A stretch of 46,907 bases of DNA from a virus. Lineage: Duplodnaviria > Caudoviricetes. The stretch lies in IMG/VR virus record IMGVR_UViG_3300048575_000380, positions 1 through 46,907 of that record, one strand, 5' to 3'. The notes beneath the pieces were generated by a model. That model did no database searches, had not been told where the DNA came from, and saw only the letters and a list, made by a program, of their open reading frames with translations. The position numbers were made by a program, and so were the translations under genes. The first letter of the stretch is position 1; each line of letters opens with the position of its first letter. Below, piece after piece: positions 26,595 to 46,677 of this stretch.

Positions 26595-29500
26595 ATGGCC
26601 GTCGATTGGGACCAGATCTTCGGCGACCCAAAGCTCGGGTCGCCGCAGGAGGCGCCTGAGGCCGCGGCGGTTGCGGCACCGACGTCTCCGCGGTACGCCC
26701 CGGCGCCGAAGACGCAAACCGAAGCCGCTGCGCGGCTGGCCGAGGTGGCCGATGCGGAAGAGGACATCCGGGCCTGGGCCGAGAGCAAGCGGCTGAAGAA
26801 GGGTGGGGAGAAGTCGGCATCTGCGCCGGGTGGCGGCCCGGGCGATGCCGCCCCCAAGCCTGAGCGCAAGGCTGGGCGTGGGGTCAACTGGGATGAGATC
26901 TTCGGCCCCGAGCAAGCGCCGGCGCCGCCGCCTCCGGCGGCGCCAGGACTGCTGGAACGTGCGGGCACCTGGCTGCGCGAGAAAGCCACGTTGCCGATGC
27001 CTGATGCGTCGCACGTGACGGCAGAGCAGGCGCAGGGAATGCTGCCGGACGAAAGCGCAGGAACTGCGTCGCCGGCCGATCAGTCGGAGCCTGAGCAGCA
27101 GACGATCACCCGCGCCAGGGACCCGCGCTCGTTCGGCACGCAGCCAGACCGTCGTGCGCGCGATGCCTTCGCGGCGAGTGACCCGCGGCGCGTGGATCGC
27201 CCGCTGACGGCGGCCGAGATGCTGCAGCAGCCGGACCCGGACATCGGCCGGCGCGTGCTGGCCGAGCGGTTGCAGGAGAGCCAGTCACCCGAGCGTCAGG
27301 CGCGCGAGCGGGCGGAGGCCATCGCTGCTGAGCGGCGCCCGCAAGAGGCCAAGCCGCTGGAATGGACCAACCGCCAGATGGAGGATCTGCGGGCCGGCGT
27401 GAAGAACCCGGCGGCGCGCGGCGTTGTCTCTGGCGTCGCGGAACTCGGCAAGGTCGGCACCGGCGCGGTTCGCCTGGCGGCCGATCTGTTTGGTGCGGAT
27501 GCGGTTGCCCAGTTCGCCGCTGGTGCGGAGAAGAAGGCGGAGGCCACCAGCAACGGCGCGATGCAGGACCTGAAGGGCAACGACAAGCTGGTGGCCGAGG
27601 TGTTCTCGTCCATCACGAACTCGCTGCCGTCGTTGGCATTGGGCGTTGCCGGCGGGGGGGCGCTGCGCACGCTGTTCGCGCAGTCGGCGCTGCAGGAGTA
27701 CGGCGCCGGCCGCGATGCTGGCTTCGGCATCGGTGAGTCCGCGACCCGCGCCGGCATCATGGGCCTGGCCGAGGCCGCCGGCGAGAAGTTCGGCTTCGGC
27801 GAGCAGATCAAGCTGCTGAAGTCGGTGACCAAAGGCTTGCCGTCCGGCGAGATGGCCAAGGTCTTCGGCGAGATGCTGGTCAAGGAGGTGCCGGGCGAAC
27901 AGCTCACCACCCTGATGCAGACGTTGGCCGACAAGCTGGGGCCGGCCGCGCTGAAACCGGACGCCACTATGGCCGACTACCTGGAAGCGGCCGGCCAGAC
28001 GCTGAAGGTGACGCTGGGCCAGAGCCTGGTGATGGGCGGCGGCCCGGCGGCGCTGAATGGCGCGCGCCACGCGGCGGCGCGGGCCGATCAAGTCAGCGGC
28101 ATGTCGACGCCACAGATCATCGGCCAGATCGAGGGCGGGCTGCGAGCGCGCGAGCTGGCGAGCTTCATGGAGCCCGGGTCGAACACCGCGCCGACCGAGG
28201 CTCGCGCCGGCGCGCTCAAGCGCTTCGACGAACTGGCCGCGGCCTTCGGCATCAACCCGAAGGCGGTGGCGCGCGCGAAGGAAGCGGTCAACGGCATGCC
28301 GGCCGGCGACGTGCCGGGGTTCCTGGCGAAGCTGGCCGACTCGCTGTCGCAGAAGGGCCTGGTCGCCAAGCCGATCGACGCCGAGGGCATGCGCGGCCTG
28401 CAGGCGGCTGTGGCGCCGGAAGCTGAGGCGGGGGCCGACCAGGCGGTGGAAGAACCTGCAACGCCAGCGGCCGCTCCCGCTGCGCCGGCCGCCCAGGACT
28501 TCACCGGCCTGGACGAGACCATCGACCGCGCTGCGCACGAAGCGGCCACCAGCCCGCTGAACGATCGGGCCGAGCCGACCGACGCCCAGAAGGAGGCAGG
28601 GAACTACGCCAAGGGGCACGTCCGCATCAGCGGCATGGACGTGAGCATCGAGAACCCGAAGGGGTCGGTGCGGCGCAGCAAGGCCGACGAGGCGCAGCCG
28701 TGGGAAGTGCGCATGCCGGCGCACTACGGCTACATCCGCGGCAGCACCGGCTCCGACGGTGACCACGTGGACCTGTTCATCGGCGACAAGGGCGACAACG
28801 GCTCGTTCTGGGTCATCAACCAGAACAAGCCCGACTGGTCCTTCGACGAGCACAAGGTCGTCACCGGCGTCGACACCGCGGCAGAGGCCATCGAGGTCTA
28901 CCGCAGGAGCTTCGCCGACGGCTACGGCGACAAGCTGATCGGCTCCGTGTCGCAGCGCATGGATGCCGCGCAGATCAAGGCGATGTTGCCCGAGATGGGC
29001 AAGGCCGCGCCCGTCCACACCCCGAAGGCGACTGATGACCTGCAACAGCCTGACGTGGCAGTTCCTGCCGCGGTACCTGCAGGAACCCCTGCTGTTGGGC
29101 GTGATCAGCCAGGCGGAAGCAGCCGAACTGTGGGACCTGGCGCTGCTGAGCACGTCGCAGTGGATCCTGCCGCCGCCGCGCCTGCAGCCGGCCCTGCGCC
29201 GCATGCAACTGCTGCGGATGTGGGCGCCCGAGACGAAGCACTGACCCGCCCACTCGGCAAAGTCGGCCGCACGCCCAGCGCTGCCGAACCTGTCGAACTG
29301 CGCACCAACACCGACGGCACGCTGACGCCCTACCTCGGCAAGACGCCGATGCTGGACTTCGACAGCGGCGAGCCGATCGTGATCCCGGCCGGCGCGACCG
29401 ATGCGCAAGCGGTGGAGGCGATCCGCCAGGCCGGCGCCGTCAGCAGCCGGAGCAAGTTCTTCGGCGTTCAAGAGTCAACATCCGCCCCGGCCCCTGGCGA

Positions 29501-29633
29501 ATCCGTGGTGCAAGGGCAAATCGGGGTCGGTGAAGCCGGGCCCGGGGCGGACACCAAGAAGCCGGTGGGCGTGCAGGCCGTCGAGCGTCGCGTCACCTCG
29601 CTGAAGGCGCTGCTGCAGTGCCTGATGGCATGA
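26595..29633 (+). CDS. Polyvalent virion protein with an inorganic-pyrophosphatase-like (InPase) domain (1012 aa)
   Basis: PTDAQKEAGNYAKGH...IENPKGS.R...HYGYI.G..G.DGDHVD.F.G...FDEHKV (about 28570-28900); repeated V(D/N)WD(Q/E)IFG near the N-terminus. Confidence 0.8.
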   Translation: MAVDWDQIFGDPKLGSPQEAPEAAAVAAPTSPRYAPAPKTQTEAAARLAEVADAEEDIRAWAESKRLKKGGEKSASAPGGGPGDAAPKPERKAGRGVNWDEIFGPEQAPAPPPPAAPGLLERAGTWLREKATLPMPDASHVTAEQAQGMLPDESAGTASPADQSEPEQQTITRARDPRSFGTQPDRRARDAFAASDPRRVDRPLTAAEMLQQPDPDIGRRVLAERLQESQSPERQARERAEAIAAERRPQEAKPLEWTNRQMEDLRAGVKNPAARGVVSGVAELGKVGTGAVRLAADLFGADAVAQFAAGAEKKAEATSNGAMQDLKGNDKLVAEVFSSITNSLPSLALGVAGGGALRTLFAQSALQEYGAGRDAGFGIGESATRAGIMGLAEAAGEKFGFGEQIKLLKSVTKGLPSGEMAKVFGEMLVKEVPGEQLTTLMQTLADKLGPAALKPDATMADYLEAAGQTLKVTLGQSLVMGGGPAALNGARHAAARADQVSGMSTPQIIGQIEGGLRARELASFMEPGSNTAPTEARAGALKRFDELAAAFGINPKAVARAKEAVNGMPAGDVPGFLAKLADSLSQKGLVAKPIDAEGMRGLQAAVAPEAEAGADQAVEEPATPAAAPAAPAAQDFTGLDETIDRAAHEAATSPLNDRAEPTDAQKEAGNYAKGHVRISGMDVSIENPKGSVRRSKADEAQPWEVRMPAHYGYIRGSTGSDGDHVDLFIGDKGDNGSFWVINQNKPDWSFDEHKVVTGVDTAAEAIEVYRRSFADGYGDKLIGSVSQRMDAAQIKAMLPEMGKAAPVHTPKATDDLQQPDVAVPAAVPAGTPAVGRDQPGGSSRTVGPGAAEHVAVDPAAAAPAAGPAPHATAADVGARDEALTRPLGKVGRTPSAAEPVELRTNTDGTLTPYLGKTPMLDFDSGEPIVIPAGATDAQAVEAIRQAGAVSSRSKFFGVQESTSAPAPGESVVQGQIGVGEAGPGADTKKPVGVQAVERRVTSLKALLQCLMA
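29035..29244 (+). CDS. Nested +1-frame gene (69 aa) inside the 1012-aa gene
   Basis: GAAGG before the ATG; 64 of 69 codons end in G/C while the host frame becomes A/T-ending and low-complexity. Confidence 0.7.
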   Translation: MTCNSLTWQFLPRYLQEPLLLGVISQAEAAELWDLALLSTSQWILPPPRLQPALRRMQLLRMWAPETKH

Positions 29634-29953
29634 AGCCCGAACTGGTCGAGCTGGCCGAGAGCATCGAAGCCAGCCTCGCGGCCATCGCTGAGAAGCTGGA
29701 CATCGCAGCCACCGCGGAAGCGGCCCTCGGCGAATTGCTCGAACTGCTGCAGGCCCGCAAGGGCATCGACCTGTCTCCGCTGGTGGCTGCGGTGCGCGAG
29801 TGCGCGCCAGTGGTCACAGTGAACGTGCCGCCGGCCCCGCAGCCGGTGGTGCAAGTCCTCCCCGCGCCCGCACAGGGCGAGTGGGAGATCACCCGCCCGG
29901 GTTCGTATGGTCAGGCTGATGTGGTGCTGGCCAGGATCAAGAGGATTGCATGA
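29630..29953 (+). CDS. Hypothetical protein (107 aa)
   Basis: ATGA overlaps; helical N-terminus and a PVVTVNVPPAP motif. Confidence 0.7.
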   Translation: MKPELVELAESIEASLAAIAEKLDIAATAEAALGELLELLQARKGIDLSPLVAAVRECAPVVTVNVPPAPQPVVQVLPAPAQGEWEITRPGSYGQADVVLARIKRIA

Positions 29954-31272
29954 CTGCCACCATTGAACAACTCGCCGCGCTGGACTCGATCAAGTCGGCG
30001 GCGCAAGCCGTGCTCAGCGCAGAGTCGACTCTGCGCGCGAGCTTGACTGCCGAACCTGCGCCGGCTCCGAGTCCTGCACCCGCGCCTTCTCCGGCTCCGA
30101 GCCCGGCGCCCGCACCCGCACCCGCCCCGACCCCAACGCCAACCGGGGCCATCGTGTGGACCAAAGGCGCCAGCACCGACCCAAGCTTGGCCCCCGCCTC
30201 CACACCTGGCCAGCCCATTGTGATGATCCTGCATGGCAGTGGCGGCGGCCCGATCCCTGACGGCGATCGGGTCGGGGATTGGTGGGTCGGCGAATGCTCA
30301 GGGGACCTGAAGTTCGACGCCGGTCCGCAAAGCCAGATGTACATGGCGGTGACGCTGGGTGGTGACCACATGCGGCTGCGCCCGAACGACCGCCAACAGC
30401 GCGCCGACGGGCAATGGCTGCAGTCACAGTGGTCCGGGTGGTCTAACGGCGACGGCGTGCTGAACCTATACACGGACCGCCGACTGGTCAAGATGCTGCA
30501 GACGATCGCCGAGCGCTACCCGCAGGGCGACACCAACAACATCCAAGTGTCCGGCCAAAGCATGGGCGGCTGGGCCGCTGCGCGTCTGGCTGTGCGCCAT
30601 GGTGACCTGCTGACCGCGTGTTTCGCCTGGCAGCCGCGGTGGCGGTCGGCGTCCGCGGTCGGCCTGCTGGAGATCGTGGACTGGCCTGGCGGTGGCGCGA
30701 CGCGAATGCCGTTTGACGCGGCGCCTACGCTGGCGGCAGCGGACGGCGGAGGCCCTGCGCTCGGGTACTTCGACAACATCGCCGGCATCCTCGATCCGAC
30801 GCGCGTGATCCCGTGGATCGGCTTCGCCATCGGCGCCAATGACCAGTACGTGCCTTGGGTCGACACGCTGCAGGCGCACGATGCCTTGCGCGCCATGAAG
30901 CGGCCTTTCGCTTTCGCGTGGAACCAGGGAGATCACGGCACGCCGCCGAGCATGCAAGAGATCGAGACCAGCTACGCGCTGGACCGCACGATGTTCCGCA
31001 AGGGCGTCCCCTACCTGAGCGGCAGCTCGCGTGACAAGGATCCGCACGTAGACCCGGCGGGCGGCGTCAACCTGGGCTTCTACTGGCGCAACGTTGTCGA
31101 GACCGCGACGAGCTGGTCTTGCCAGCTCACAAACACCAAGGGCGCGACCACGGTGACCGTGGAGCCGTGCAGCACGTTGTTCCCGCGCGGCGTTCGCTCG
31201 GCCGATCCGGTCGCTGCCAAGACGGTGACGACGGTGCCCGGAAGTTGGGTCACGGTGAGCTTCACGGCATGA
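29950..31272 (+). CDS. Alpha/beta-hydrolase (esterase-like) with N-terminal helix and Pro-Ala linker
   Basis: ILHGSGG, nucleophile elbow GQSMGG, candidate Asp (GANDQ) and His (QGDH). Confidence 0.75.
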   Translation: MTATIEQLAALDSIKSAAQAVLSAESTLRASLTAEPAPAPSPAPAPSPAPSPAPAPAPAPTPTPTGAIVWTKGASTDPSLAPASTPGQPIVMILHGSGGGPIPDGDRVGDWWVGECSGDLKFDAGPQSQMYMAVTLGGDHMRLRPNDRQQRADGQWLQSQWSGWSNGDGVLNLYTDRRLVKMLQTIAERYPQGDTNNIQVSGQSMGGWAAARLAVRHGDLLTACFAWQPRWRSASAVGLLEIVDWPGGGATRMPFDAAPTLAAADGGGPALGYFDNIAGILDPTRVIPWIGFAIGANDQYVPWVDTLQAHDALRAMKRPFAFAWNQGDHGTPPSMQEIETSYALDRTMFRKGVPYLSGSSRDKDPHVDPAGGVNLGFYWRNVVETATSWSCQLTNTKGATTVTVEPCSTLFPRGVRSADPVAAKTVTTVPGSWVTVSFTA

Positions 31273-33386
31273 GCACCACCACCGATCTCTACGCGGCACT
31301 CGTCGCCGCGACGGAGACTCTGCACGCCACGGCCGTCGGCGCGCGCCAAGTGCTGCTCGCGACGACAGAGCCGACTCCGGAACCGGAGCCTGACCCTGTC
31401 GTCGATCCGCCGGCCCCCGTTGCGCCGACGCTGCCCACGACTCGGATCCTCGATTACCGCCGCATCGTGATGTTCCGCGAGTGGTCCTGGGGCGACGCTT
31501 ACGACCGTGAGGAAAAGCCCATCATCGCCACCGGCCCGACGCTCAAGCTCACGCTGGCTGCCGCAAGCCAGGGGCGTGATGACGGGCAAGGGTGGTACCC
31601 GAAGACGAGCACGCGATCTTTCGAAGCGGCGCAGTACCAGATCACAAGCAATGGAGCGGTAGTCGGGTCCGTGTCTCCGGCTGCTGGATCGGTCTATGCC
31701 GACGTGACGCTCAACACCGCGGCCATGGACCCCGGCTGGCATCTGCTGGACATCGAGGGCAGCGATGAGTCGATGATCCCGCTGGCTGTGTACGTCCAGC
31801 GAGCGGACTACACGCCGGACCGCATGCTGATCGTGCAAGCGACCTACGGGGTCTACTCGCATCATTGGGGGCAGGTGTCGTGGGCGTGGGTGCCGATGCA
31901 GCGCACGCCGACCAGCGTGCCTTACGTGCTGCGCGCCGCGGCGCCGTTTTCGGATCTGCGGTACCGGAAGACGTTGGTCGAGTTCGAGGTCGTGCCGTGG
32001 CGCCACCACGACGACTACCGGCCGCGCCTGACGAACGGCGTGGTCCACGGCTCGAACACGCAGTCCTACTACTGGTATGACCTGGCCAGCAGCCGCTACC
32101 CGTCGCTGCCGTGCCTTGACGGTCCTCGCGGCGTCGGCACGCTCAGCGCCCCGATGCACATCCAGATCGGGCGCAACGGCGGGCTGTACGTGTGCACGTC
32201 ATGGAGCCTGGTGCACATCGATCCCAAGGGCACGTTGAAAACCTTGCTCGGATGGCGTCACACCGCCCCGGCCGGGCTTCCGATCCCGGCCACCGACGCG
32301 ACGCGCAAGGCCACTTGCGAGCTGGTCGGTGACTGGTCTGCTATCGCCGAAGCTGACCGCGGTCCGCACGAGCTGTGGGGGATGGCCTGGCGGCCGTCCA
32401 CCGTTGTGATCGACGAGTCGGCCGCGCCCATGCTGAACGGCGACAACGGGATGGAGAAGCCCCACATCGTTGGGCCACAGGCGTTCCTTGCCGACAGCCA
32501 GGGCAATCGCATCCTGCGCGCGAAGTTCGACCCCCGCAGCCACGACACGCCGGCCAAGATCACGGTGCTGGCGACGGGGCAGGACTACTGGGACGTGGCC
32601 TGCGGGCCCGACGACACGATCTACGCATCGGAGCGCGGGGCCGACCGCGTGGTGGTGCTGGACCCCGACACTGGCGCCGTGCGCGACGTGCTGTTGCAGG
32701 GACAGCCAGGGTTGGCGACGATCGCTCAGGGCCGCTTGCCTCGCTTGCTGTGCACGCTGGAGCAAGCGCAGGCGCAGCCCGTTCTGAGGCCTGAAGGCCT
32801 GTACCTGCTCGACGACTGGCTTTACGTGGCATCGAGCGCGATGAGGCAGGTGCTGCGCGTCAATGTCAAGACGCGCGAACGGCAGGTTGTTGTCGCAGCG
32901 GCCTACTGGACCGACGGTGTGCCGTTCTACAAGATCGCGGTGAGCGACGGCGGCTTCGGGCCGCGCGGCACTGTGTTCCTTCAGAGCTGGAGCGTGCGCA
33001 ACCAGGGCCGGCCACTGGCATACCTGCCCGATGGGTCAGACTGGCGCTACGTGGCCAACGACGCGAAGTCGTCGGACCCAGCGACGTACGGGCCTGGACT
33101 GCCCTGGCGCACGGTTGACTATGGCTCCGCCTGCGCGGTGGGTCAGGGGCGGCTTGTACACGGCGGGTCCAGCGAGGGCATTTGGTCGATCGAGGCCGCG
33201 CAGCCGAGCGATCAGGTCGTCACCGAGAAGCGCTGGACGGCCGCGTCAGGTGCATACGCCGATGCTGATCTCGTGCTTACGCATGGGCAGGGCGGGTTTT
33301 CGCACTTCTATTCGACACCGCCGTGGGGCGTCAGCGCCGCGGTGGGCGACTACTTGGCCATGCATGGCCACCGGCAGGAGGTTTAA
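31269..33386 (+). CDS. Large beta-propeller (NHL-like) protein with N-terminal helix and Pro-rich linker (705 aa)
   Basis: Blade-like repeats: FLADSQGNRI, WDVACGPDDTIYASERGADRV, PEGLYLLDDWLYVASS. Confidence 0.65.
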   Translation: MSTTTDLYAALVAATETLHATAVGARQVLLATTEPTPEPEPDPVVDPPAPVAPTLPTTRILDYRRIVMFREWSWGDAYDREEKPIIATGPTLKLTLAAASQGRDDGQGWYPKTSTRSFEAAQYQITSNGAVVGSVSPAAGSVYADVTLNTAAMDPGWHLLDIEGSDESMIPLAVYVQRADYTPDRMLIVQATYGVYSHHWGQVSWAWVPMQRTPTSVPYVLRAAAPFSDLRYRKTLVEFEVVPWRHHDDYRPRLTNGVVHGSNTQSYYWYDLASSRYPSLPCLDGPRGVGTLSAPMHIQIGRNGGLYVCTSWSLVHIDPKGTLKTLLGWRHTAPAGLPIPATDATRKATCELVGDWSAIAEADRGPHELWGMAWRPSTVVIDESAAPMLNGDNGMEKPHIVGPQAFLADSQGNRILRAKFDPRSHDTPAKITVLATGQDYWDVACGPDDTIYASERGADRVVVLDPDTGAVRDVLLQGQPGLATIAQGRLPRLLCTLEQAQAQPVLRPEGLYLLDDWLYVASSAMRQVLRVNVKTRERQVVVAAAYWTDGVPFYKIAVSDGGFGPRGTVFLQSWSVRNQGRPLAYLPDGSDWRYVANDAKSSDPATYGPGLPWRTVDYGSACAVGQGRLVHGGSSEGIWSIEAAQPSDQVVTEKRWTAASGAYADADLVLTHGQGGFSHFYSTPPWGVSAAVGDYLAMHGHRQEV

Positions 33387-33389
33387 GGC

Positions 33390-33815
33390 ATGGCCAACAG
33401 CAACACCAACACCACCGCGGTTGCATTCGGTGGTACCTCTACGATGTCGACCCCGAAGGGGTTGAGCAGCACCAACCGCTTCATCTTCGACGCCATCACT
33501 GTTCACGCCGATGCAGTGTCCGCGGCTTTGACCGTGACACTTGACAACCAGGGCACACCAGCCAGCGGCGACTATGTGGATCTGCAGATCGCGTGGTCGG
33601 CGGATGGCACGAGTTTCGACTCCGACGAACACGCCATGTACTTGCCGCGCATGGACACCTTCGGCACCAACGATCCAGGCGAAGATCCGTGCACGCGGAC
33701 ATTCACTCTTCACGTAAGTGGCAAGCAGAAGTTCAAACTGCTGGCAAAGGCCAACCAAGGTGGAACGCGCACCGTCAACCTCAGCGCGATCTATAACGAA
33801 CATCGCATGGCTTGA
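33390..33815 (+). CDS. Hypothetical beta-sandwich virion-like protein (141 aa)
   Basis: AGGAGG RBS; beta-rich sequence. Confidence 0.7.
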   Translation: MANSNTNTTAVAFGGTSTMSTPKGLSSTNRFIFDAITVHADAVSAALTVTLDNQGTPASGDYVDLQIAWSADGTSFDSDEHAMYLPRMDTFGTNDPGEDPCTRTFTLHVSGKQKFKLLAKANQGGTRTVNLSAIYNEHRMA

Positions 33816-33818
33816 TCC

Positions 33819-34592
33819 ATGACGATACGATATTCCCCCTCGAAGTGGGACCAGCAGCCGCCGGCCGAGTGGGAATCGCTGAACGCCAGCTTGCCGGCAC
33901 CGACAGCGGTCTTCAGATCGACCGGCAACCAGCAGCTGGCGCGCGGGGTTGGAATCGCGTCGTCCTCATACATCAACTGCAGCCGGACTAATACCGCCGC
34001 GGGGACTGCAGTCAAAGTTGCCGGCGCAAGCGGCGACGGGATTCAGCACACCTTCGTCGAGTCCATCGCGCGCAAGGACTGGGCCATAGCAGCAGTCGTC
34101 CGCATTGACAGCATCGCTGCCAATGGAACTATTTTCGGCTTGAATGGATTGCTACAGGTTCGCGTTACGACCGGCGGTCAGATTGAGATGCTGAACGAAG
34201 GCAACTTCTCAATGGCGACCAGTTCGTTCGCTGGCTACGGTGCCGGGCAAGTGCGATGTTTCGTCGTGCGGGGCGTTACGGGCGGCCCGGTAACTTGTTA
34301 TGAAGGTGGATTGCTGCGTGCCAGTTATGCGCCCGAACTGGACATCGGGGTCGTTGACAAGTTCATCACCTTTGGCCGACGCGGCGGCGCGAGCGAAGCG
34401 CTCAATGGAGCGATTGTCGACGCGGCCTTCTGGGGCCGTGAGATTCCGAGCGCGGGCCAGTGCGCAGAGGTCTCCGGCGATTTCTATGGTCGACTATTCG
34501 CTCTTGACCTCCCGCGGGTTGTGTCGAACGTCGCTGCTGCGACCTTGTTCCGTCGAACCCTTTCGAACCGCGTAGGAAGCAGAAATGTTTGA
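33819..34592 (+). CDS. LamG/concanavalin-A-like lectin-domain protein
   Basis: WAIAAVVR...YEGG...FGRR...LNGAIVDAAFWGREI pattern; visibly lower GC3 than its neighbours. Confidence 0.6.
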   Translation: MTIRYSPSKWDQQPPAEWESLNASLPAPTAVFRSTGNQQLARGVGIASSSYINCSRTNTAAGTAVKVAGASGDGIQHTFVESIARKDWAIAAVVRIDSIAANGTIFGLNGLLQVRVTTGGQIEMLNEGNFSMATSSFAGYGAGQVRCFVVRGVTGGPVTCYEGGLLRASYAPELDIGVVDKFITFGRRGGASEALNGAIVDAAFWGREIPSAGQCAEVSGDFYGRLFALDLPRVVSNVAAATLFRRTLSNRVGSRNV

Positions 34593-36315: not shown

Positions 36316-36319
36316 AGCC

Positions 36320-36833: not shown

Positions 36834-39800
36834 TTTCACCGCGTGCCTGAAGAAGGTATCCCTCGACCCTGCGGACAAGGCCGAGGTGATGGCCCGAGCG
36901 CGCCGGCATCGTGCCGACGGCGTGGCGCCGAGCGAAGCCGCAAAGCGCGCCGTGCGCGACCTGATCATCGAACTGCGCGGAGTGCAGCGGGAGGCCAAAC
37001 TGGCCGCGTCGCCAGCCGCGTCGCCTGCACCAAGTCCTGCCGCACCCACCGAGCGCAGGCACCCGAGCACCGTGATGGGCTCGCGCCTGCTGGCCGTGGT
37101 CAGCCGCCGCCTGGGCGGGCTGGATCCCGCCTGGCTGTCGGAGTTCAGCACCCGCTTCGAGACTGCCCGCAAGGGCAAGGACGGCCGCCCGGTGGTGCAA
37201 TGGCGCAATCCGATGGTGCCCGGCATCGGCAAGCTGTTCCGCCAGGGCGGGACGCAGGACCTGCAGCGCATCGCCGAGGTGATGGAGGAAGAGGGCTTCC
37301 TCTCGCCCGGCACCGTCGACGCGGATGCGAAGGCAGCCGGCGAGCAGGCAAAGGCGCTGATCCAGAAGGCGCTGAACCGCGAGGAAGTAAAGAGTCTTGA
37401 CGAGCAGGCCGCCGAGGCGCAAACCGCGCAGGATGCCGAACGACAGGCGTACTATGAGGGCCTGGACGCCGAGGCGGCGCGCGAAGCCGAAGCCGAGCGC
37501 GAGGCCATCATGGCCGAGTCGGAGGCCAAGGTCGATGGCATCGATCATTTGGCCGACGACGACATGGTGCCGTGGGAGCTTGCCGAGCCCTCGTCGCTGC
37601 AGCAGACCGCCGACTTCCTGGGCATCACCATCGAGGAACTGCGCCGTGAACAAGGACTACAAGGACCGCTTCGCCAAGATGAGCAAGCCGCAGCAGGAGG
37701 TGGTGAAAGCGATCGCGCGCATGCCGGTCGAGCAGCGCAGCCGCCTCCTGAAGCTCGAAGCGCTGCGCCGCAACGTGGACCTGAAGACGGGCAAGAAGCA
37801 CGAGGACTGACCCTCGAAGCGCAGACGCCGGCCGACCTCGAGGCCAAGGCCGAGCGCGAAGCGGCCGGCACCGCTGCTGAACAGGCCCGCCGCAAGGTTG
37901 ACCAGCAGCGGCTGCAGCGGCAAGCCGACGAGCGCGACACCCGCGCACGTGTCGACCAGACGGTCGGCGACTTCCAGTTGGGCCAGTCGGCCGAGCAGCA
38001 GCTTTCCGGCACGAACGACCTGTTCGAAGCCAAGCCCAACACCATCTTCACCGAGGACGCGGCCGAGAAGGCCCGCGCGATCCTGCGGCGCAAGCTGGGC
38101 CAGATCAACAGCGGCATCGACCCCGAGCTGGTGCAGGCCGGCATCACGCTGGCGGGCTACCACATCGAGCGCGGGGCCCGCAGCTTCGCGGCCTACGCCC
38201 GGGCCATGCTGGCCGACATGGGCGAGCTGGTGCGGCCCTACCTCAAGAGCTGGTACATGGCCGCGAAGTACGACCCGCGGCTGTCCGGCATGGAGGGCAC
38301 GAGCGGCGCCGCCGAGGTGGAGGCCGCGGACATCAACACCATCCCGGCGCAGAATGCCGCCCAGGAGACCCCCGATGTACCAGGTGCCCACCCCGATCTG
38401 GAACGAGATCGCCAGAACGCAGGAACTGGCAACGCCGCTGTGGAAGGCGCTGTTCCCGGCGAAGAACCTGCAGGCGGCGCTTCAGCCGCTGGAGGCCGAG
38501 ATGGCAGCAGCGGGCGCGGACGACCGGACGATCAGGGCGTTTCTGATGGTGGCACCGTGCTACCACGAGAACCTGGCGATCAGCCGGTTCATCGAGCAGA
38601 CCGGGCGGACGGACCTGCGGAGTTCCCTGCCCGAACTGGCGACGGCCACCGAAGCGACGACCCTGGCTTCGAGCGACCTGCGACTGGACCACGCCCAACA
38701 GGACAAGCTGCGCAACCTGCTGCTGGCCTACCGAACGAAGAGCGCGCCGCCGCCCAACGAGCCGCCGAGCGAATCGCCCCGGTAGCGGGCGACCTCGCCA
38801 ACATCCGCGCCACGCTGCCCTACCTGCTGCCCGGCCAGCAGGAGGACGTGCACAAGGCCGAGACGCGGCACCTGCTGCCCGGGGGCTACGGCTACCTGCT
38901 GACCAACGGCACCGGCACGGGCAAGACCTTCTCCGGCCTGGGCACGATCAAGCGCTTCCAGCGCGAGGGCAAGACGGACACGCTGATCGTCGTGCCCGAC
39001 GAGAAGATCATGGCCGACTGGGTGGCCTCCGGGCTGCCGATGGGCCTGACCATCACGCCGCTGAAGGACACGAAGGACGGCGGCGCCGGCATCACGATCA
39101 CGACCTACGCCAACCTGGGGCAGAACCTGGAGTTGGCGCGCCGGAAGTGGGACTTGATCGTGCCCGACGAGGCGCACCAGTTGATGCAGGGCGCCGACGG
39201 CGAAGGCACGCTGGCGATCGACGCGCTGCGCGCGATCAGCATGCACCCGCGCGGCTCGATCACGCGGTTCCGGATGCTGCACCACGACGAGCTGCAGCGT
39301 CAGCGCATCCTGAACGAGCGCCTGGAGGGCAACACCCGGATCCTGAACAACCCCGACACCATGGACCAGGTGCTGGCGGACGTGCGGGCCGAGAACGCGA
39401 AGCTGGACGCCGAACTGACGGCGCTGGCCGACAAGCTGGCGGCGGCCAGGAAGGCCGTGCAGGCCGAGGTGGAGGCGGCCCAGGGCGCCGGCCGCACGCG
39501 CGTGCTGGCGCTGTCGGCCACGCCTTTCGCCTACGAGAAGACGATCGACTGGGCCGAGGGCTACCTGTTCAGCTACGGGGAGCCGTCGACCGAGGGCCGC
39601 TCCTACAACCGCGGCGATGCGCGCGAGCAGTTCTTCGTGCAGCACTTCGGCTACCGCATGCGGAACAACAAGCTGACCGAGCCCGACGCCGGCGTGGACC
39701 GCGGCCTGATGCAGCGGCAGTTCAACACCTGGCTCAAGCGCGAAGGGGCGCTGTCCGGCCGCATGCTGGAGGTGGACGCGGACTACGACCGCCGCTTCGT

Positions 39801-42800
39801 GATGGTGGACTCGGCCGTCGGCAACCAGATCGACCAGGCCATCGAGTTCATCAACGACCAGCGCAAGGCCTTCGACGAGGCGCAGCCGAAGGACCAGCAG
39901 GCGCCCAACGGCTGGGCCTTCCTGGTCGGCGACCTGAACGAGGCCCTGTACGGCAAGCTGGGCCACCTGACCCGGCGCTACCTGCTGGAGGCGATCAAGG
40001 CCAAGGAGGTGATCCCGCACATCCGGGAGCACCTGGCCCTGGGCCGCAAGGTGGTGGTGTTCCACGACTTCAAGAAGGGCGGGGCGGTCAACCCCTTCGC
40101 CTTTGCCGAGCGCACGCTGCCGCCGCGCGGGCAGACGGAGATGGGCCCCGAGGACTACGCCAAGGCGCAGGCCGACGTGGCTGCCCACAACGAGGCGGTG
40201 CGCGCCTTCCGCGAGCGGTTCCCGGACCTGGCCGGCGGGGATCTGCTGAACGAGCTGATCCCGCCGGTGGAGCGCTTCAAGCGCGAGTTCCCCGACGTGC
40301 TGCTGATCAACGGCGACGAGAAGAAGGCCGACCTGCTGGCGCGGTACCAGCGCTTCCAGAGCGACGAGGCAGGCCCGACCATTGCGTTGGTGCAGTCCGA
40401 CAAGAACAAGGGCTGGAGCGGCCACGACACCACGGGCAAGCACCAGCGGGTGCTGTTCAACCTGGGCTTGCCGACGCAGCCGACCAAGACCATCCAGCAG
40501 GAGGGCCGGATCTACCGCACGGGCCAGGTCAGCAACGCCATGTTCCGCTACCTGAACACCGGCACGAACTGGGAGCGCTGGGCCTTCGCGCAGACCATCG
40601 CCGAGCGCGCCAGCGCGGCGGAGAACCTGGGCATGGGCGAGTCAGCCCGGGCGCTGAAGGACGCCTACATCGCGGCCTTCGAGGAAAGCGGCGACTTCCG
40701 CGCCGGGCACGAAGGCGAGGGCACCGGCGGCAAGGCCCGCGACGCGCTGGCGAACAACGCGCTGACGGACTACGACCGGGCCAAGTCGTTCTACTTCGGC
40801 ACGCAGAAGAAGGACGCCCGCACCAAGGCGCAGGAGGGCAAGGACTACTTCGCCACCCCGGAGCCCCTGGGCCTGAAGATGGCCGAATGGGCCGACGTGC
40901 GCGCCGGCGAAGACGCACTGGAGCCCAGCGCCGGCCACGGGGCCATCGCGCGCTGGCTGCCGGAAACTGCCAGCCGCACGGCCATCGAGCCCAGCAACGC
41001 GCTGGGCTCGCGCCTGGCGCTGGTGTTCGACGGCAAGATCGTCCGCGGCGAGTTCGAGGGCCACAACGTCGTCAACAAGTACGACGCGATCGTCATGAAC
41101 CCGCCGTTCGGCACGGGCGGCAAGACCGCGATCGAGCACCTGGAGAAGGCGGCCACGCACCTGCGCGACGGCGGGCGCATCGTGGCGCTGATCCCCACGG
41201 GGCCGGCGGCGGACAAGCGCTTCGAGCAGTGGTTCCACGGGGAACAGGAGCGCCCGGTCAAGCCGCTGGGCATCGTGACGCTGGACGGCCGGCAGACGCC
41301 GATCTACAAGGGCGACACGGTGACCAGCCGCGCGGCTTGGGCGCCCGAGGGCGTGGTGACCGGCTGGCGCGACGGCGCGCCGCTGGTGAAGGCGTCGGCA
41401 CCGGAGTTCCGCGGCGCCGGTGCTTCGCTGGTAGCCGAGCCGGCGATCCTGTCGGTGCAGCCTACCGGCACGCGCACCGAGAAGTTCAGCGCGACCGAAG
41501 GCCTGCACCTGGTGGCCGACATCAAGCTGCCGGCGGTGACGTTCGAACGCGCCGGCACCAAGGTGGCGACGCGGGTGGTGGTGATCGAGAAGCCGGGCAG
41601 GGACCGCCAGGCGCCGCAGCAGGTGAACCGCGATCTGAGCGACATCGACACCATCGGCGGCTTGTTCGACGCGCTGGAGCCGATGACGCTGGCGCCGCGG
41701 GCGAAGCCGGCGCAGCCGGTGGCGGCCCGGGTCGAGAAGGTGCCGGAGCGGGCCCAGGCGCAGGCCGCGAGCGCCGACCTGGCGCACCAGCAGGGCATCA
41801 AGCTGGTGGAGCACACCACCGCCAAGGGCAAGCTGCTGAAGGGGGTAATCCGCAAGAACCTGACCCGGCAGCAGGCCGAGCAGGTGGACCCCTACACCTT
41901 CCGCAAGGACGGCGGCTTCTTCATCCGGGCCGAGCACCTGCCCAAGCTGCAGGAGCAGTTCCCCGCCGATCAACCTCTGCTGTCGCGTGCCGCCGACGCG
42001 GCCCGCGGCATGCCGGCGCAGGACCTGCGGCGGATGGTGGACCGCGTGTCCGCCGGGTGGCGCGATGGCGGCCCGACGGTGACGGTCGTCACCACGGTGC
42101 AGGACCTGCCTCCGGCCATCGTCAACGCCCTGCGCAGCAAGAACGCCTTGGGCAACACCCGCGGCTTACGCCTGCCAGATGGCCGCGTCTACCTGGTAGC
42201 GGACAGGTTCAACAGCATGGCCGAGGCCCAGGCGGTGCTGTTCCACGAGGTCTACGGCCACGAGGGCCTGCGGGCTTTCCTGGGCGACGAGTACATCACC
42301 ACGATGGCGCTGCTGCGCGCGGCGAACCCGAAGCTGCGCGGCGAGGCCGAGGCTTGGTTCAGGGACAACGGCCGGGACGAGATCGCGGCGCGCGTGGCCC
42401 GCGGGATGTCGCAGAAGGAGGCGGAGGCCGTCGTTCGGGCCATCGCTGTCGAAGAGGCGCTGTCCGATCGTGCCGGCGACAACCCGCCGCCGAATGCGTG
42501 GAAGACGCTGATGTCCCGGCTGCAGGCTGCGCTGCGCAAGCGCGGACTGGGCTGGATCGCTGACAAGCTGGAGTCGATGACCGAGGCCGAAACGCACGCG
42601 GTGCTGATGGGCGCGCGGCGGGCGATCGACAAGCAGCAGGGCGATCTGCCCGGCTGGCTGCAGGACGGGCTGCTGCGCTCGACCGACCCCAACACGCCGG
42701 CCGACACGGTGCGCGCGTTCCGCGACACCGAGCGGGCCTACGGCGGCCGCGCCGCCCATGCGCAGGCGCTGGCCGCGGGCCGGACCCGGCTTCCCTACAG

Positions 42801-45800
42801 CCAGTGGGTGCAGGTGCGCACGCCGGCGTTCAAGGCGTGGTTCGGGGATTGGGAGGCGGCGCGGGCGCAGGATCGGCTGGACGCGATGGCGCCAGTGGCG
42901 CTGGCGCTGCCCGAGCACTTGCGTGGCGCGTCCCTGGTGCAGTTGCGCGATGCGGTGAAGGCCCGCCTGGATGCCATGGCGGATGCCAACACCACGGCTC
43001 ACCACCCGGTGCTGGGCGAGGTGGGCTTCAGCAAGGGCAACAACAAGAAAGCCGTCAGCACGTCGGCCACGCCGGAGAAGCTGCAGGCGGCGCATGAGAT
43101 CGTGTCCGTGATCGAATCGGGCATCCACGCCGCGAGTGCGCTCAGCACCGCGCCGAACGAAGCCCCGCACGGGGTGACCTATCACACGCTGGCAACGAAG
43201 GTGGAAGCCTTCGGGCGGGAGTTCGTGGCGCTGGTGACGGTGAAGCAGACGCCGAACGGGCAGCGCTTCTACAACAACATCGCCGTGCAGCCTGCCAATG
43301 AGAAAGCCCCAGCGGCATATCCGGGGGACCGTGCACCCGGAGATGTCGGTTCCGCCGCGGCCTTCGCTGGGGCAGACGGCAGTGTGCTACCGGCCATGCG
43401 TCGCGTCAACCCGGAGACCGTCTCCAAGGCCACTGACCCCGCCACCGGCGAGCCGCGGGTGATGTTCCACGGCACCGGCGCGGACTTCGACCGCTTCAAG
43501 GGCAAGCAGGCCGAGGCCATCTTCCTGACTGACGAGCCGATCTTCGCGCAGGCCTACGCCGACACCTCGGCCAAGTGGATGCAGCACCGTGAACAGGACG
43601 GTGCGGCGCGGATCATGCCGATGTTCGCCAGCGCCAAGAGCCCGTTCGACTACCAGAACGCCAAGCATCGCGCGCGCGTCATCGAGATCGCCTTGGCGCA
43701 GAACGGCGGCAAGAACGGTGCCGGCGAAACGGTCATCGCCAACGACGATGGCACCCCGAGCTTGTGGTCGGCGCCGGTCATAGAGTCGGGCCTGACCGAG
43801 CCAGCCGGCGACGGAAACTGGCTGCTGGTGGAACAGCCGTGGATGCAGGACGCCATCAAGGCCGCCGGCTTCGACGCCTTCTACGTCAGCGAGAGCGGCT
43901 TCAAGAACCTGGCCCTGTACGAGTCGGCGCAGGTGAAATCGGCGGTGGGCAACCGCGGCACCTTCGACCCGAACGAGGCCAGCATCCTGCTGAGCCGCAA
44001 GCCCCCGGCCGACCCGGTGCTCGCCAGCGCCATGCGCAAGGCCGGCATCAACGGCCGGCCGACGCTGCGCGGCAAGGTCAGCCGCTTCCTGACGCGCTGG
44101 CGCGACCTGACACGCGACCGCAAGGCACTGGCCGACGAGGTGCGGCAGGGCACGCTGGACCAGTTCTACGGCATCCAGCGCGCGGTGCGCTCCGAGCTGG
44201 GCAACCTGCCGATGGAGCAGGACCCCTACATCACGGCCCGCCTGGCGAACGGCGGCGCCAGCTCGGTGATGCGGGGCCTGCTGCTGCACGGCCAAGCCAA
44301 GTGGGCGGCCAACGGCCAGCATCTGGAGAAGATCGACGGCACCCAAGGCCTGCTGGACATCCTGAAGCCGCTGGGCGACGACCTGGACCACTTCTTCGGC
44401 TGGATGGTGGGCAACCGCGCCGCGCGGCTGAAGGCCGAGGGCCGCGAGAACAACCTGAGTGACGCCGAGATCAAGGCGTTGCAGGCCCTGGCGACGCCCG
44501 AGCGCCTGGCGAAGTTCCAGCAGGCAGCCCAGCAGTACGCCCAGTTCAAGCGCAGCGTGCTCGACGTGGCGCAGGAGGCCGGCCTGATCGACCCGGAAGG
44601 CCGCAAGGCCTGGGACCACGCCGACTACATCCCGTTCTACCGCGAGATCGACGCCAAGGCGGTGTTCTCGCCCACCGGGCACAAGGGGTTGGCCGGGCAG
44701 TCGTCTGGCATTCGCACCCTCAAGGGCGGCGAGTCGATGCTCAACGACCCGATGGAGAACCTGCTGATGAACTTCAGCCGGTTGATCGATGCCAGCCTGA
44801 AGAACAACGCGATCCGCAAGACCATCTACGCGCTGGAGAACCAGTCCGACCTGGTGGAGCGCGTGGGCTACGACATGGCCCCGGCCCTGGTGCCGCGCAG
44901 CCAGGTGGAGACCATGTTGAGGAAGGCCGGCACGCCCGAGGCGGTGCTGCAGGCCATGCCGGCGGACGTGTTCGATGGTATCGGCAAGATGTGGGCGATC
45001 AGGGCCCCGAGCGACCCAGACGTGGTGCGCGTGATGATGGGCGGCAAGCCGGTCTTCTTCCGCGTGCACGACCCGCTGCTGCTGCGCTCGCTGACGAGCT
45101 TCGTGCCCTACGACTTCCCGATGTCGTCGGTGTTCCGAGGCGCCCGGAGGCTGCTGACGGCCATGGTGACCAGCACGCCGGAGTTCATGGCGCGCAACTG
45201 GATCCGCGACTCGCTGGCTGCGCAGGCGATCACGAACACGCCATTCAACCCGCTGGAGTCGGTCAAGGGCATCTGGAAGGCCTACAAGGAGAACCAGGCC
45301 TACGAGGCGATGCTGTTCGCCGGCGCGAGCTTCCAGTCCGGCAACGTGAACGCGGGCGACCCCCAGGGCACGGCCGTCGGCATGCGCCGCGCGCTGCGAG
45401 AGCGCGGTTTCGACGCCAGCTCGATCGACTCGTTCATGGGCTCGATCATCGACAACACGGCCCGGGGTTGGGAGAAGTACCGCGAGGTCGGCGAGGCGGT
45501 CGAGAACGCCAACCGCAACGCCATCTACGAGGCCGCGGTGGGGTCGGGCAAGAGCGCCACCGCGGCTGCGTTCGAGGCCAAGGACTTGATGGACTTCAAC
45601 CTGCGCGGGGACTGGGCCGGGTACCAGATCCTGGCGGACGTGCTGCCGTTCTTCAATGCGCGCGTGCAGGGCCTGTACCGGCTGGGCCGCGCGGACCCGA
45701 AGCGGCTGATGGCCGTGGGCATGCTGATGACCGCGGCCACCGCGATGCTGGCCTTGGCAAACGCCGGCGAGGACTGGTACGAACGCCTGCCCGACTGGGA

Positions 45801-46677
45801 CAAGGACACCTTCTGGCACGTGAAGGTGGGCGGCGTTCACCTCCGCATCCCGAAGCCCTTCGAGCTGGGCGTGCTGTTCGCCACGCTGCCGGAGCGGATC
45901 GCCCGCGGCGTCTTGGGCTACGACTCGGCCAAGAAGACGATCTCGCGCGTCTACTCCAACGTGCGCGACCAGCTCTCCATCAACCCGATGCCGCAGGCCA
46001 TCCGGCCGGCCACAGAGGCCTGGGCCAACTGGGACAGCTTCCGCGGCCGGCCGATCGAGAACATGGCCGACGAGGGCCTAAGCCCGCACGCCCGGTTCGA
46101 TGCGCGGACCTCCGACACCATGCGCGTGCTCGCCAACGCGGCCCCGTCGGTGACGGACTGGGCTGGCCTGAGCCCGAAGAAGCTGGAGTTCCTGATCAAC
46201 GGCTACTTCGGCACGGTCGGCATGTACGCGATGGGGGTCTCCGACGCCATGGTGCGCTCGATCGAGGGCCGGCCAGCGCGGCCCGCCTGGCGCATGGACG
46301 ACATCCCGGTGATCCGCGCCTTCTACGCCGAGGACCCGCCCAAGGCCACCGTCTTCGAGAGCGACATCTACCAGATGCGCGGCGAGGTCGAGAAGATCAT
46401 GAAGGAGTTCAGGAAGGGCGCGCAGAGCCGCATCCCGTCCGAGCAGCAGGCCGCCAAGGACCTGCTGACCAAGGAGAGCGACAAGATCAAAGCCTACGGC
46501 ATCGTGGTCGGCGTCGCCAAGCAGGTCTCGAGCATCAACAAGCGGATCAGCGACATCTACCTGGACCCGAACCTCGACGCCGGCCAGAAGCGGGTGGAGG
46601 TGGACAAGCTGCTGACGAAGAAGGCCGCCATCGCGCAGCAGGCGGCGCAGAACCCATCGGTGCGTGCCGTGTTCTAG
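36826..46677 (+). CDS. Giant polyvalent (DarB-like) protein, 3283 aa: SF2 helicase, N6-adenine MTase, metallopeptidase, LPD3-like, ART-like and LPD38-like domains
   Basis: GTGTGKT, DEAH, LSATP, QQEGRIYR; LEPSAGHG and MNPPF; HEVYGH; QWVQVRTPAFKAWFGDW; MFHGT...IFLTD...QVKSAVGNRGTFD; PDWDKDTFW...IPKPFELG. Confidence 0.9.
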   Translation: MASFTACLKKVSLDPADKAEVMARARRHRADGVAPSEAAKRAVRDLIIELRGVQREAKLAASPAASPAPSPAAPTERRHPSTVMGSRLLAVVSRRLGGLDPAWLSEFSTRFETARKGKDGRPVVQWRNPMVPGIGKLFRQGGTQDLQRIAEVMEEEGFLSPGTVDADAKAAGEQAKALIQKALNREEVKSLDEQAAEAQTAQDAERQAYYEGLDAEAAREAEAEREAIMAESEAKVDGIDHLADDDMVPWELAEPSSLQQTADFLGITIEELRREQGLQGPLRQDEQAAAGGGESDRAHAGRAAQPPPEARSAAPQRGPEDGQEARGLTLEAQTPADLEAKAEREAAGTAAEQARRKVDQQRLQRQADERDTRARVDQTVGDFQLGQSAEQQLSGTNDLFEAKPNTIFTEDAAEKARAILRRKLGQINSGIDPELVQAGITLAGYHIERGARSFAAYARAMLADMGELVRPYLKSWYMAAKYDPRLSGMEGTSGAAEVEAADINTIPAQNAAQETPDVPGAHPDLERDRQNAGTGNAAVEGAVPGEEPAGGASAAGGRDGSSGRGRPDDQGVSDGGTVLPREPGDQPVHRADRADGPAEFPARTGDGHRSDDPGFERPATGPRPTGQAAQPAAGLPNEERAAAQRAAERIAPVAGDLANIRATLPYLLPGQQEDVHKAETRHLLPGGYGYLLTNGTGTGKTFSGLGTIKRFQREGKTDTLIVVPDEKIMADWVASGLPMGLTITPLKDTKDGGAGITITTYANLGQNLELARRKWDLIVPDEAHQLMQGADGEGTLAIDALRAISMHPRGSITRFRMLHHDELQRQRILNERLEGNTRILNNPDTMDQVLADVRAENAKLDAELTALADKLAAARKAVQAEVEAAQGAGRTRVLALSATPFAYEKTIDWAEGYLFSYGEPSTEGRSYNRGDAREQFFVQHFGYRMRNNKLTEPDAGVDRGLMQRQFNTWLKREGALSGRMLEVDADYDRRFVMVDSAVGNQIDQAIEFINDQRKAFDEAQPKDQQAPNGWAFLVGDLNEALYGKLGHLTRRYLLEAIKAKEVIPHIREHLALGRKVVVFHDFKKGGAVNPFAFAERTLPPRGQTEMGPEDYAKAQADVAAHNEAVRAFRERFPDLAGGDLLNELIPPVERFKREFPDVLLINGDEKKADLLARYQRFQSDEAGPTIALVQSDKNKGWSGHDTTGKHQRVLFNLGLPTQPTKTIQQEGRIYRTGQVSNAMFRYLNTGTNWERWAFAQTIAERASAAENLGMGESARALKDAYIAAFEESGDFRAGHEGEGTGGKARDALANNALTDYDRAKSFYFGTQKKDARTKAQEGKDYFATPEPLGLKMAEWADVRAGEDALEPSAGHGAIARWLPETASRTAIEPSNALGSRLALVFDGKIVRGEFEGHNVVNKYDAIVMNPPFGTGGKTAIEHLEKAATHLRDGGRIVALIPTGPAADKRFEQWFHGEQERPVKPLGIVTLDGRQTPIYKGDTVTSRAAWAPEGVVTGWRDGAPLVKASAPEFRGAGASLVAEPAILSVQPTGTRTEKFSATEGLHLVADIKLPAVTFERAGTKVATRVVVIEKPGRDRQAPQQVNRDLSDIDTIGGLFDALEPMTLAPRAKPAQPVAARVEKVPERAQAQAASADLAHQQGIKLVEHTTAKGKLLKGVIRKNLTRQQAEQVDPYTFRKDGGFFIRAEHLPKLQEQFPADQPLLSRAADAARGMPAQDLRRMVDRVSAGWRDGGPTVTVVTTVQDLPPAIVNALRSKNALGNTRGLRLPDGRVYLVADRFNSMAEAQAVLFHEVYGHEGLRAFLGDEYITTMALLRAANPKLRGEAEAWFRDNGRDEIAARVARGMSQKEAEAVVRAIAVEEALSDRAGDNPPPNAWKTLMSRLQAALRKRGLGWIADKLESMTEAETHAVLMGARRAIDKQQGDLPGWLQDGLLRSTDPNTPADTVRAFRDTERAYGGRAAHAQALAAGRTRLPYSQWVQVRTPAFKAWFGDWEAARAQDRLDAMAPVALALPEHLRGASLVQLRDAVKARLDAMADANTTAHHPVLGEVGFSKGNNKKAVSTSATPEKLQAAHEIVSVIESGIHAASALSTAPNEAPHGVTYHTLATKVEAFGREFVALVTVKQTPNGQRFYNNIAVQPANEKAPAAYPGDRAPGDVGSAAAFAGADGSVLPAMRRVNPETVSKATDPATGEPRVMFHGTGADFDRFKGKQAEAIFLTDEPIFAQAYADTSAKWMQHREQDGAARIMPMFASAKSPFDYQNAKHRARVIEIALAQNGGKNGAGETVIANDDGTPSLWSAPVIESGLTEPAGDGNWLLVEQPWMQDAIKAAGFDAFYVSESGFKNLALYESAQVKSAVGNRGTFDPNEASILLSRKPPADPVLASAMRKAGINGRPTLRGKVSRFLTRWRDLTRDRKALADEVRQGTLDQFYGIQRAVRSELGNLPMEQDPYITARLANGGASSVMRGLLLHGQAKWAANGQHLEKIDGTQGLLDILKPLGDDLDHFFGWMVGNRAARLKAEGRENNLSDAEIKALQALATPERLAKFQQAAQQYAQFKRSVLDVAQEAGLIDPEGRKAWDHADYIPFYREIDAKAVFSPTGHKGLAGQSSGIRTLKGGESMLNDPMENLLMNFSRLIDASLKNNAIRKTIYALENQSDLVERVGYDMAPALVPRSQVETMLRKAGTPEAVLQAMPADVFDGIGKMWAIRAPSDPDVVRVMMGGKPVFFRVHDPLLLRSLTSFVPYDFPMSSVFRGARRLLTAMVTSTPEFMARNWIRDSLAAQAITNTPFNPLESVKGIWKAYKENQAYEAMLFAGASFQSGNVNAGDPQGTAVGMRRALRERGFDASSIDSFMGSIIDNTARGWEKYREVGEAVENANRNAIYEAAVGSGKSATAAAFEAKDLMDFNLRGDWAGYQILADVLPFFNARVQGLYRLGRADPKRLMAVGMLMTAATAMLALANAGEDWYERLPDWDKDTFWHVKVGGVHLRIPKPFELGVLFATLPERIARGVLGYDSAKKTISRVYSNVRDQLSINPMPQAIRPATEAWANWDSFRGRPIENMADEGLSPHARFDARTSDTMRVLANAAPSVTDWAGLSPKKLEFLINGYFGTVGMYAMGVSDAMVRSIEGRPARPAWRMDDIPVIRAFYAEDPPKATVFESDIYQMRGEVEKIMKEFRKGAQSRIPSEQQAAKDLLTKESDKIKAYGIVVGVAKQVSSINKRISDIYLDPNLDAGQKRVEVDKLLTKKAAIAQQAAQNPSVRAVF
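37646..37810 (+). CDS. Nested +1-frame gene (54 aa, basic, helical) inside the giant gene
   Basis: GAGGA before the GTG; 52 of 54 codons end in G/C; host frame is A/T-ending there. Confidence 0.7.
   Translation: MNKDYKDRFAKMSKPQQEVVKAIARMPVEQRSRLLKLEALRRNVDLKTGKKHED
38375..38785 (+). CDS. Nested +1-frame gene (136 aa) inside the giant gene
   Basis: AGGAGA 6 nt before the ATG; globular-looking MYQVPTPIWNEIART...; GC3-rich, while the host frame is a G/R/P/D-rich linker. Confidence 0.78.
   Translation: MYQVPTPIWNEIARTQELATPLWKALFPAKNLQAALQPLEAEMAAAGADDRTIRAFLMVAPCYHENLAISRFIEQTGRTDLRSSLPELATATEATTLASSDLRLDHAQQDKLRNLLLAYRTKSAPPPNEPPSESPR
43298..43390 (-). ncRNA. Candidate small antisense RNA embedded in the giant gene
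   Basis: Perfect 9-bp inverted repeat 43306-14/43365-73 enclosing a hairpin at 43316-45; on the minus strand it is preceded by CACACT (43381-86) and followed by TTTCT. Confidence 0.45.

Follow-up and report, generated by a model that had tools for sequence, protein, structure and literature searches.

A widespread, unannotated second layer of small +1-frame genes within polyvalent phage genes, and its putative function

Polyvalent phage genes carry an unannotated second layer of small genes, which on the evidence of sequence comparison is real and widespread and for which a putative function can be proposed. The layer was recognised in a 46.9-kb phage contig of 68% GC (the window, 46,907 nucleotides, is the whole record), in which three small genes, n1, n2 and n3, lie in the +1 frame of two host genes, h1 and h2 (Table 1). 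Comparison with related sequences established the nesting, the conservation, the selection acting in the nested frame, the open and unconstrained state of the host frame, and the strict pairing of n3 with one type of helicase. We regard all three as conserved nested genes and tentatively favour the reading in which n3 is a binding partner that would keep the helicase-methyltransferase folded and inactive, in the cell that makes it, until packaging.

Table 1. Coordinates of the host genes, nested genes and related features in the window
Feature	Position	Strand	Description
Rz-like spanin gene with nested Rz1	Rz 6720-7226; Rz1 6937-7215	+	Rz1 in +1, with SD; phrog_312, phrog_11621
h1	26595-29633	+	1012-aa polyvalent-type gene, host of n1; PHROG matches to DarB-like and virion proteins
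n1	29035-29244	+	69-aa nested gene in +1 of h1; codon score 40
h2	36826-46677	+	3283-aa polyvalent gene, host of n2 and n3; phrog_10691 (E 0), phrog_5143
n2	37646-37810	+	54-aa basic helical nested gene in +1 of h2, GTG start, 230 nt before domain X; codon score 53
Domain X	38038-38325	+	unnamed conserved helical domain of h2 between n2 and n3
SD of n3 (AGGAG)	38363-38367	+	from the sequence
n3	38375-38785	+	136-aa nested gene in +1 of h2, all-helical conserved family; codon score 64
Helicase and methyltransferase	38878-41217	+	ResIII/Helicase_C_4-like, aa 685-1262, then methyltransferase, aa about 1327-1464; Pfam, PHROG

The host genes

The late genes of the window, as assigned by Pfam and PHROG, encode terminase, a P22-like portal, capsid, tail and internal virion proteins, and h1 and h2 are located among them, downstream of the terminase, portal, capsid, internal virion and tail genes, with which they share a strand. 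Both encode single polypeptides with a varied set of enzymatic and LPD domains, among them the InPase domain of h1 (aa 663-779, nt 28581-28931; Pfam PF18823, E 3e-41) and the helicase, methyltransferase, LPD3, ART-PolyVal and LPD38 domains detected by Pfam in h2; on sequence they fit the typical polyvalent or DarB-like class, as far as it is set out in the available part of PMC5512222. Virion association was demonstrated by mass spectrometry only for a relative, JC1 gp69 (PMC9144972, available part). Orthology of h2 with P1 DarB was rejected, because the P1-type module of methyltransferase followed by SNF2 is absent and the helicase of h2 is different and placed first; the match between the two proteins is confined to 114 aa of the methyltransferase (E 0.004). 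For domain X only weak winged-helix-like matches were obtained (the HMM covers aa 409-504, counted in the stop-to-stop frame), and the structure search with VIA gave Z up to 5.7 (rmsd 2.4, 57 aligned), which is not distinct from background.

The InPase and helicase parts form a single gene in most relatives; in the window they are separate, as h1 and h2, with nine unrelated genes between them (29618-36833). These nine genes gave no Pfam or PHROG match except a weak one to laminin-G, and no nested ORF with a positive codon score was detected in this region.

Three nested ORFs with inverted codon usage

The 106 nested ORFs of 24 window genes, 69 of them in +1 and 37 in +2, were scored by codon log-likelihood; n1, n2 and n3 are the three clear codon-usage outliers, the next real row scoring -4 and the sole row above them (1875-2360) being a gene-boundary artefact. 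The phase of the three-frame GC plot flips exactly over the three ORFs, with nested third-position GC of 0.91 for n1, 0.95 for n2 and 0.88 for n3; starts and stops are intact, and each ORF has an SD-like site (AAGG, GAGG and AGGAG, respectively). The initial annotation, which had reported three +1 ORFs with SD-like sites bracketing an inversion of codon bias, was therefore right in coordinates as well as in these properties. The whole of n2 and most of n3 are matched without indels by contigs from the public runs X1, X2 and X4 (run X1 may be the source sample), and no paired compensating frameshifts are seen in these contigs. Searches of Pfam, PHROG and PADLOC gave no match for any of the three.

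The Rz/Rz1 pair of the same contig had been put forward as an internal positive control. The arrangement is indeed the same, Rz1 being nested in +1 with an SD, but its codon score is -12, without inversion of codon bias, and thus the pair serves as a control for nesting only.

Conservation of and selection on n3

Judged from its conservation, n3 is a real gene family. Matches were found in 8 of the 50,697 GenBank phage records, representing six phages of Pseudomonas, Serratia, Ruegeria, Vibrio and Klebsiella at 34-40% identity, in each case overlapped by an annotated giant gene and themselves unannotated in all six regions fetched. A profile search yielded 585 clusters at 50% identity, the best 150 of which were inspected. 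In the first set of 61 entries (60 spanned by the host ORF, L048 being cut; L001 duplicates L010), ATG stands at the aligned n3 start in 61/61, in every case in the +1 frame of a long ORF. Three genome samples, about 1200 genomes altogether, added two clear n3 matches, both nested as judged from the translations, together with two weak matches outside the family.

Selection was analysed on 55 distinct n3 sequences, leaving out the duplicate L001 and the truncated L048. Of the 1485 pairs, 1484 show greater protein identity when translated in the nested frame than in that of the host, although pairs and lineages are related and the pair counts are not independent. For the 156 pairs at or above 60% identity, which fall into four bins, pN/pS is 0.35-0.53 in the nested frame versus 1.27-1.72 in the host frame, and the adjacent helicase, used as a control, gives the mirror image of this pattern. 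After frame-blind DNA alignment, 113 of 121 pairs had changed mostly at the wobble position of the nested frame. Purifying selection thus acts on the +1 frame of the homologues, which has stayed open, and the host frame drifts, the reverse of what would be seen for a +1 frame filling with stops under host-only selection. The description of the host frame as open and of low complexity was likewise borne out: over the n3 homologues its residues are rich in G, A, R, D, S and P and nearly free of aromatics, and no stop was observed where a total of 255 would be expected under synonymous recoding, indicating that the host read-through itself is maintained.

An SD core is present at 41 of the 55 n3 starts as compared with 397 of 4506 other +1 ATGs (9%), and in 10 loci an in-frame stop stands directly before the n3 ATG. 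The family is kept in the AT-richer Vibrio phages, in which the host GC3 is 0.39. In the same way as an Rz1-type embedded gene, n3 is a whole conserved ORF in +1 with its own start and SD. The AlphaFold model predicts an eight-helix domain (pLDDT 93, pTM 0.85), for which neither Foldseek (PDB, BFVD) nor VIA gave a significant fold match (best Z 4.9, within background) and the ESM Atlas search no usable match.

n1 and n2

Both n1 and n2 are nested with conserved homologues, fewer in number than those of n3. For n1, database homologues were found at 70% (P0019) and 55% (P0020) identity and nested homologues in L008 and L058; with an n1 profile that took in members aligned by eye from Parlo, ZX1, PEp14, GP4 and Bcep22, the nested copy of L074, which had been held out, was found at E 3e-15, and the per-frame test gave an equivocal 10 of 21 pairs. 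For n2, nested homologues were detected in L010, L011 and L012, and the nested score exceeds that of the host frame in 6/6 pairs. The tblastn search of n1 and n2 against GenBank phages gave no homologue, and one chance match. That the apparent linkers are shadows of real small genes, as originally suggested, is established for n3, has good support in the case of n2 and is likely for n1.

Histidine, a C-terminal residue preferred by Lon (PMC11986505, available part), is the last residue in 9 of the 11 aligned n1 members; n1 may be short-lived, which is a guess from this residue.

Pairing of n3 with the helicase and with domain X

The 109 n3 matches represent 85 distinct copies, of which 78 are nested before the same type of helicase, 6 are free-standing and 1 is truncated. 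The Walker A motif follows the n3 stop after 34-65 residues in 55/55 cases. With the helicase as query the same 8 phage records were obtained as with n3, while domain X as query returned 71 records. In the plasmid collection 5 helicase matches were found and 4 were fetched, 3 of these with nested n3 and the fourth carrying a free-standing Aquimarina helicase without n3; a helicase-seeded viral scan returned one already known contig only. Over 31 loci the pairwise identity of n3 correlates with that of the helicase with rho 0.62 and with that of X with rho 0.32, a correlation with the helicase that could be explained by physical linkage alone.

Of 61 hosts, 54 have an X-type domain ahead of n3 (X in 37, X2 in 9 and X3 in 8), X2 resembling X weakly (probability 53%) and X3 not significantly. 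The remaining 7 hosts lack any upstream X-type domain. Domain X is also absent from two further Acinetobacter loci (L110, 2173-6183; L112, 2029-5859), which are short helicase-methyltransferase genes of about 1300 aa with a divergent nested n3.

Fusions and free-standing copies of n3

Among 41 n3 proteins longer than 150 aa, 9 (7 clusters) are fusions with X or with either of two variant domains found ahead of n3 in other hosts, while a helicase match was found in 0/41. Five of the nine (P0116, P0083, P0084, P0098 and P0171) have the opposite order to the phage gene, so that a single frameshift cannot be their origin; X2-n3 fusions in phage order are P0072, from a Bradyrhizobium chromosome, P0128 and P0118. 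An n2-like piece occurs in 3 long n3 proteins, at the C-terminus in P0116 and P0083 (49% identical). The monomer model of P0116, made from an unpaired alignment, has confident modules but a pTM of 0.52, with no evidence of packing between them, and gave no significant match in the fold searches (Foldseek, VIA); Pfam and PADLOC detected nothing on the fusions scanned, and no DNA context was found for P0116 or P0083.

The signals for the partner of n3 diverge, in that the fusions indicate X and the co-occurrence indicates the helicase. The proposal that the nested proteins are cognate partners of the adjacent domains is supported in part: the helicase co-occurrence speaks for it in n3 and the X fusions in n3 and n2, but n1 follows the InPase domain in only 3 of 19 InPase loci and was rejected as its partner as a rule.

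The helicase is lacking at 4 of 10 genome and 2 of 26 metagenome n3 loci, which give the six free-standing copies. One of them (L070) adjoins a type III restriction-modification pair, a Gp49/HTH pair and an integrase; another (L073) adjoins MazEF; the copy of L079 belongs to a satellite-like element, adjacent to a tRNA-like site, that also carries a Toprim primase and DUF3987, and it immediately follows a short ORF with an n2 likeness seen by eye only. No new free-standing copy was found in the three samples of about 1200 further genomes. The free-standing copies may be inhibitors that have become domesticated or simply remnants of prophages left in insertion hotspots, two origins that six cases with no control cannot separate. 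In L072 a second small ORF (2078-2278) lies downstream of the free-standing n3, and the same fragment also holds a polyvalent-derived gene.

Further nested families in polyvalent genes

At 60 loci, 104 of 1486 +1 ORFs scored above 3 as compared with 0 of 377 +2 ORFs, at least 2 of the 104 being boundary artefacts, and the high-scoring +1 ORFs form further families beyond n1-n3. A nested +1 gene of 50-53 aa, whose stop abuts the n3 ATG and which thereby forms a two-gene nested operon, was identified in L014 (3881-4042) and in L020, L022, L024-L029 and L038. Another nested family occurs at varying host positions (L004, 11461-11613; L045, 14138-14284; L050, 14174-14344; L056, 14090-14245; L061, 17895-18098; L062, 17914-18123), and its members are fused to n3 in P0118 and P0099.

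Of the 71 records ascertained by domain X, 8 phages were fetched; all lack n3 and carry a P1-DarB-like module, and in 7 of the 8, Bcep22 gp75 included, a different nested family occupies the linker before that module. TnpV (PF14198) is a weak match for the gene in this slot in 4 of the 7, i.e., PEp14, Itty13, PBC5 and Bcep22 (E 4e-4 to 0.045, below the curated cut-off). No nested candidate was found in P1 darB itself (best score -14). Bcep22 gp75 (L063), a reference gene of the DarB-like kind, carries two unannotated nested +1 ORFs, 9580-9744 and 11359-11682, one n1-like and one TnpV-like. In PBC5 the giant gene is split (L061, 11069-11645), orf33 ending with the TnpV-like ORF in frame, while in Atu_ph08 it is continuous; the split is either a real frameshift or a sequencing error.

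Comparison with known nested genes

Nested +1 genes as such are already known, i.e., Rz1 and the HNH insertions of the ShiLan type. Rz1 within Rz, known from lambdoid and Bcep22-like phages (PMC9144972, available part), resembles n1-n3 in being a small gene wholly inside another, in +1 and with its own SD; the products of such a pair are thought to act together, and gene callers miss the nested member. The genes described here differ in that the overlapped part of the host is an unconstrained linker and in that several unrelated families reside in one giant gene. They are not spanins, for which no Pfam or PHROG match was found in n1-n3, whereas the true Rz1 does match. In ShiLan and Pacc40, HNH genes are inserted out of frame in phage methylase genes and the host frame stays open as a loop (PMC11855218, available part), a likeness to the present case in both respects. 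In contrast to this patchy kind of insertion, n3 accompanies the helicase in 8/8 phage records, and ShiLan-type homing endonucleases were rejected as the identity of n1-n3, which gave no HNH match in Pfam or PHROG. No similarity was detected between n3 and PF14198 or the TnpV-like nested family (probability 0.3%), and n3 is not a TnpV.

In P1, Ulx is an accessory factor of DarB. Both Ulx and n3 are small proteins encoded beside antirestriction cargo, but Ulx is encoded by a separate gene downstream of darB whereas n3 is nested, and homology was rejected at the level of sequence, a profile compared with one sequence giving a probability of 0.3%.

No description of a nested layer in polyvalent or DarB genes was found in the literature available to search, supplements aside. 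A term search of the available part of PMC5512222, on polyvalent proteins, returned no overlapping or nested genes or TnpV, and the Parlo announcement mentions embedded genes for spanins only (PMC6606913).

Proposed role of the nested proteins and alternative explanations

The nested genes are likely absorbed partner genes of the cargo, encoding putative inhibitors or chaperones. The small genes would be the older layer, engulfed when flanking genes fused via read-through in the -1 frame: the codon usage of the nested frame is typical, which suggests that the nested layer is the older one and that the linker arose by read-through at fusion, and absorption by this route fits the codon usage. 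We suppose that n1-n3 share a late mRNA with the cargo and each begin translation at an SD of their own, an arrangement that would make partner and cargo inseparable by recombination. The contact sites of the n3 and n2 products on the cargo would lie near domain X and the helicase, and n1 belongs to this layer with a looser placement; the partner would then be left behind at packaging or injection, and the enzyme would become active only in the next host.

That the nested ORFs are chance open frames or paired assembly frameshifts is hardly conceivable. High GC does leave many long off-frame ORFs, but n3 is conserved in AT-richer Vibrio phages, high scores are confined to the +1 frame, and the selection pattern together with the indel-free contigs has already refuted this origin for n3. 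It is also very improbable that the +1 frames are alternative C-termini of a shortened cargo made by +1 ribosomal frameshifting, without initiation of their own. Such joins can exist, as the phage-order X2-n3 fusions show, and orf33 of PBC5 ends in just this manner; against it stand the conserved ATG at the homology boundary, the enrichment of SD cores, and the in-frame stop directly before the n3 ATG.

Two readings that grant the genes their own products deserve more weight. The nested proteins might, in functional analogy with P1 Ulx, be adaptors for packaging or ejection, which bind X and load or release the cargo without inhibiting it. This appears rather unlikely, even if the recurrent fusions of n3 with X-type domains and the late-gene location agree with it, as does the requirement of P1 antirestriction for accessory proteins including Ulx, none of which was found in JC1 (PMC9144972, available part). 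n3 tracks the type of helicase rather than X, it lacks sequence similarity to Ulx, and an adaptor role accounts less easily for the free-standing n3 copies of bacterial islands. Alternatively, the linkers might be disposable sites that house independent small effectors (for example for host takeover or exclusion) for the sake of space, with no tie to the neighbouring domains. We hold this to be unlikely as a general account: n1 and the family of L004 11461-11613 change their host positions and free-standing n3 copies exist, but the position of n3 is fixed in 78 copies, the nested family swaps with the enzyme type, and the order-reversed fusions join n3 to X. It is more plausible for n1 than for n3.

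In a further reading, polyvalent genes might carry inseparable +1 safety catches, one family per enzyme module, which bacteria and satellites have stolen. The free-standing n3, the cassettes of an n2-like ORF and n3 and the n3-X-n2 fusions would then be decoy inhibitors that disarm the injected antirestriction helicase-methyltransferase and re-expose the phage to neighbouring restriction systems. This extension is speculative and on present evidence improbable; the free-standing n3 copies are candidates for a new anti-phage function. Widely annotated genes of Parlo, Skulduggery, ZX1, Bcep22 and PEp14 hide conserved families that the databases omit, and thus studies of DarB-like cargo have missed likely accessory factors. 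Deleting or recoding polyvalent 'linkers' would remove genes; since each small gene can be removed without change in the host protein, nesting offers an unusually clean test. It suggests both how multi-enzyme cargo is built, by read-through across partner genes, and how the cargo may stay quiet before injection.

Other reading frames

Two nested +1 ORFs of about 150 aa, in L009 (8240-8695) and L056 (7133-7597), are presumably HNH endonuclease-like from a motif that we recognised, with the host frame open; neither gave an HNH match in Pfam, and they are possibly ShiLan-like elements inside polyvalent genes. In Itty13 (MW460249; L068, 6864-19199) antisense ORFs are annotated over a DarB-like sense frame of 4112 codons. 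The window itself contains an ORF of 281 aa (1515-2360), which by its motif we take to be phage exonuclease-like and which overlaps the over-extended 5′ part of the ORF called at 1844-3448.
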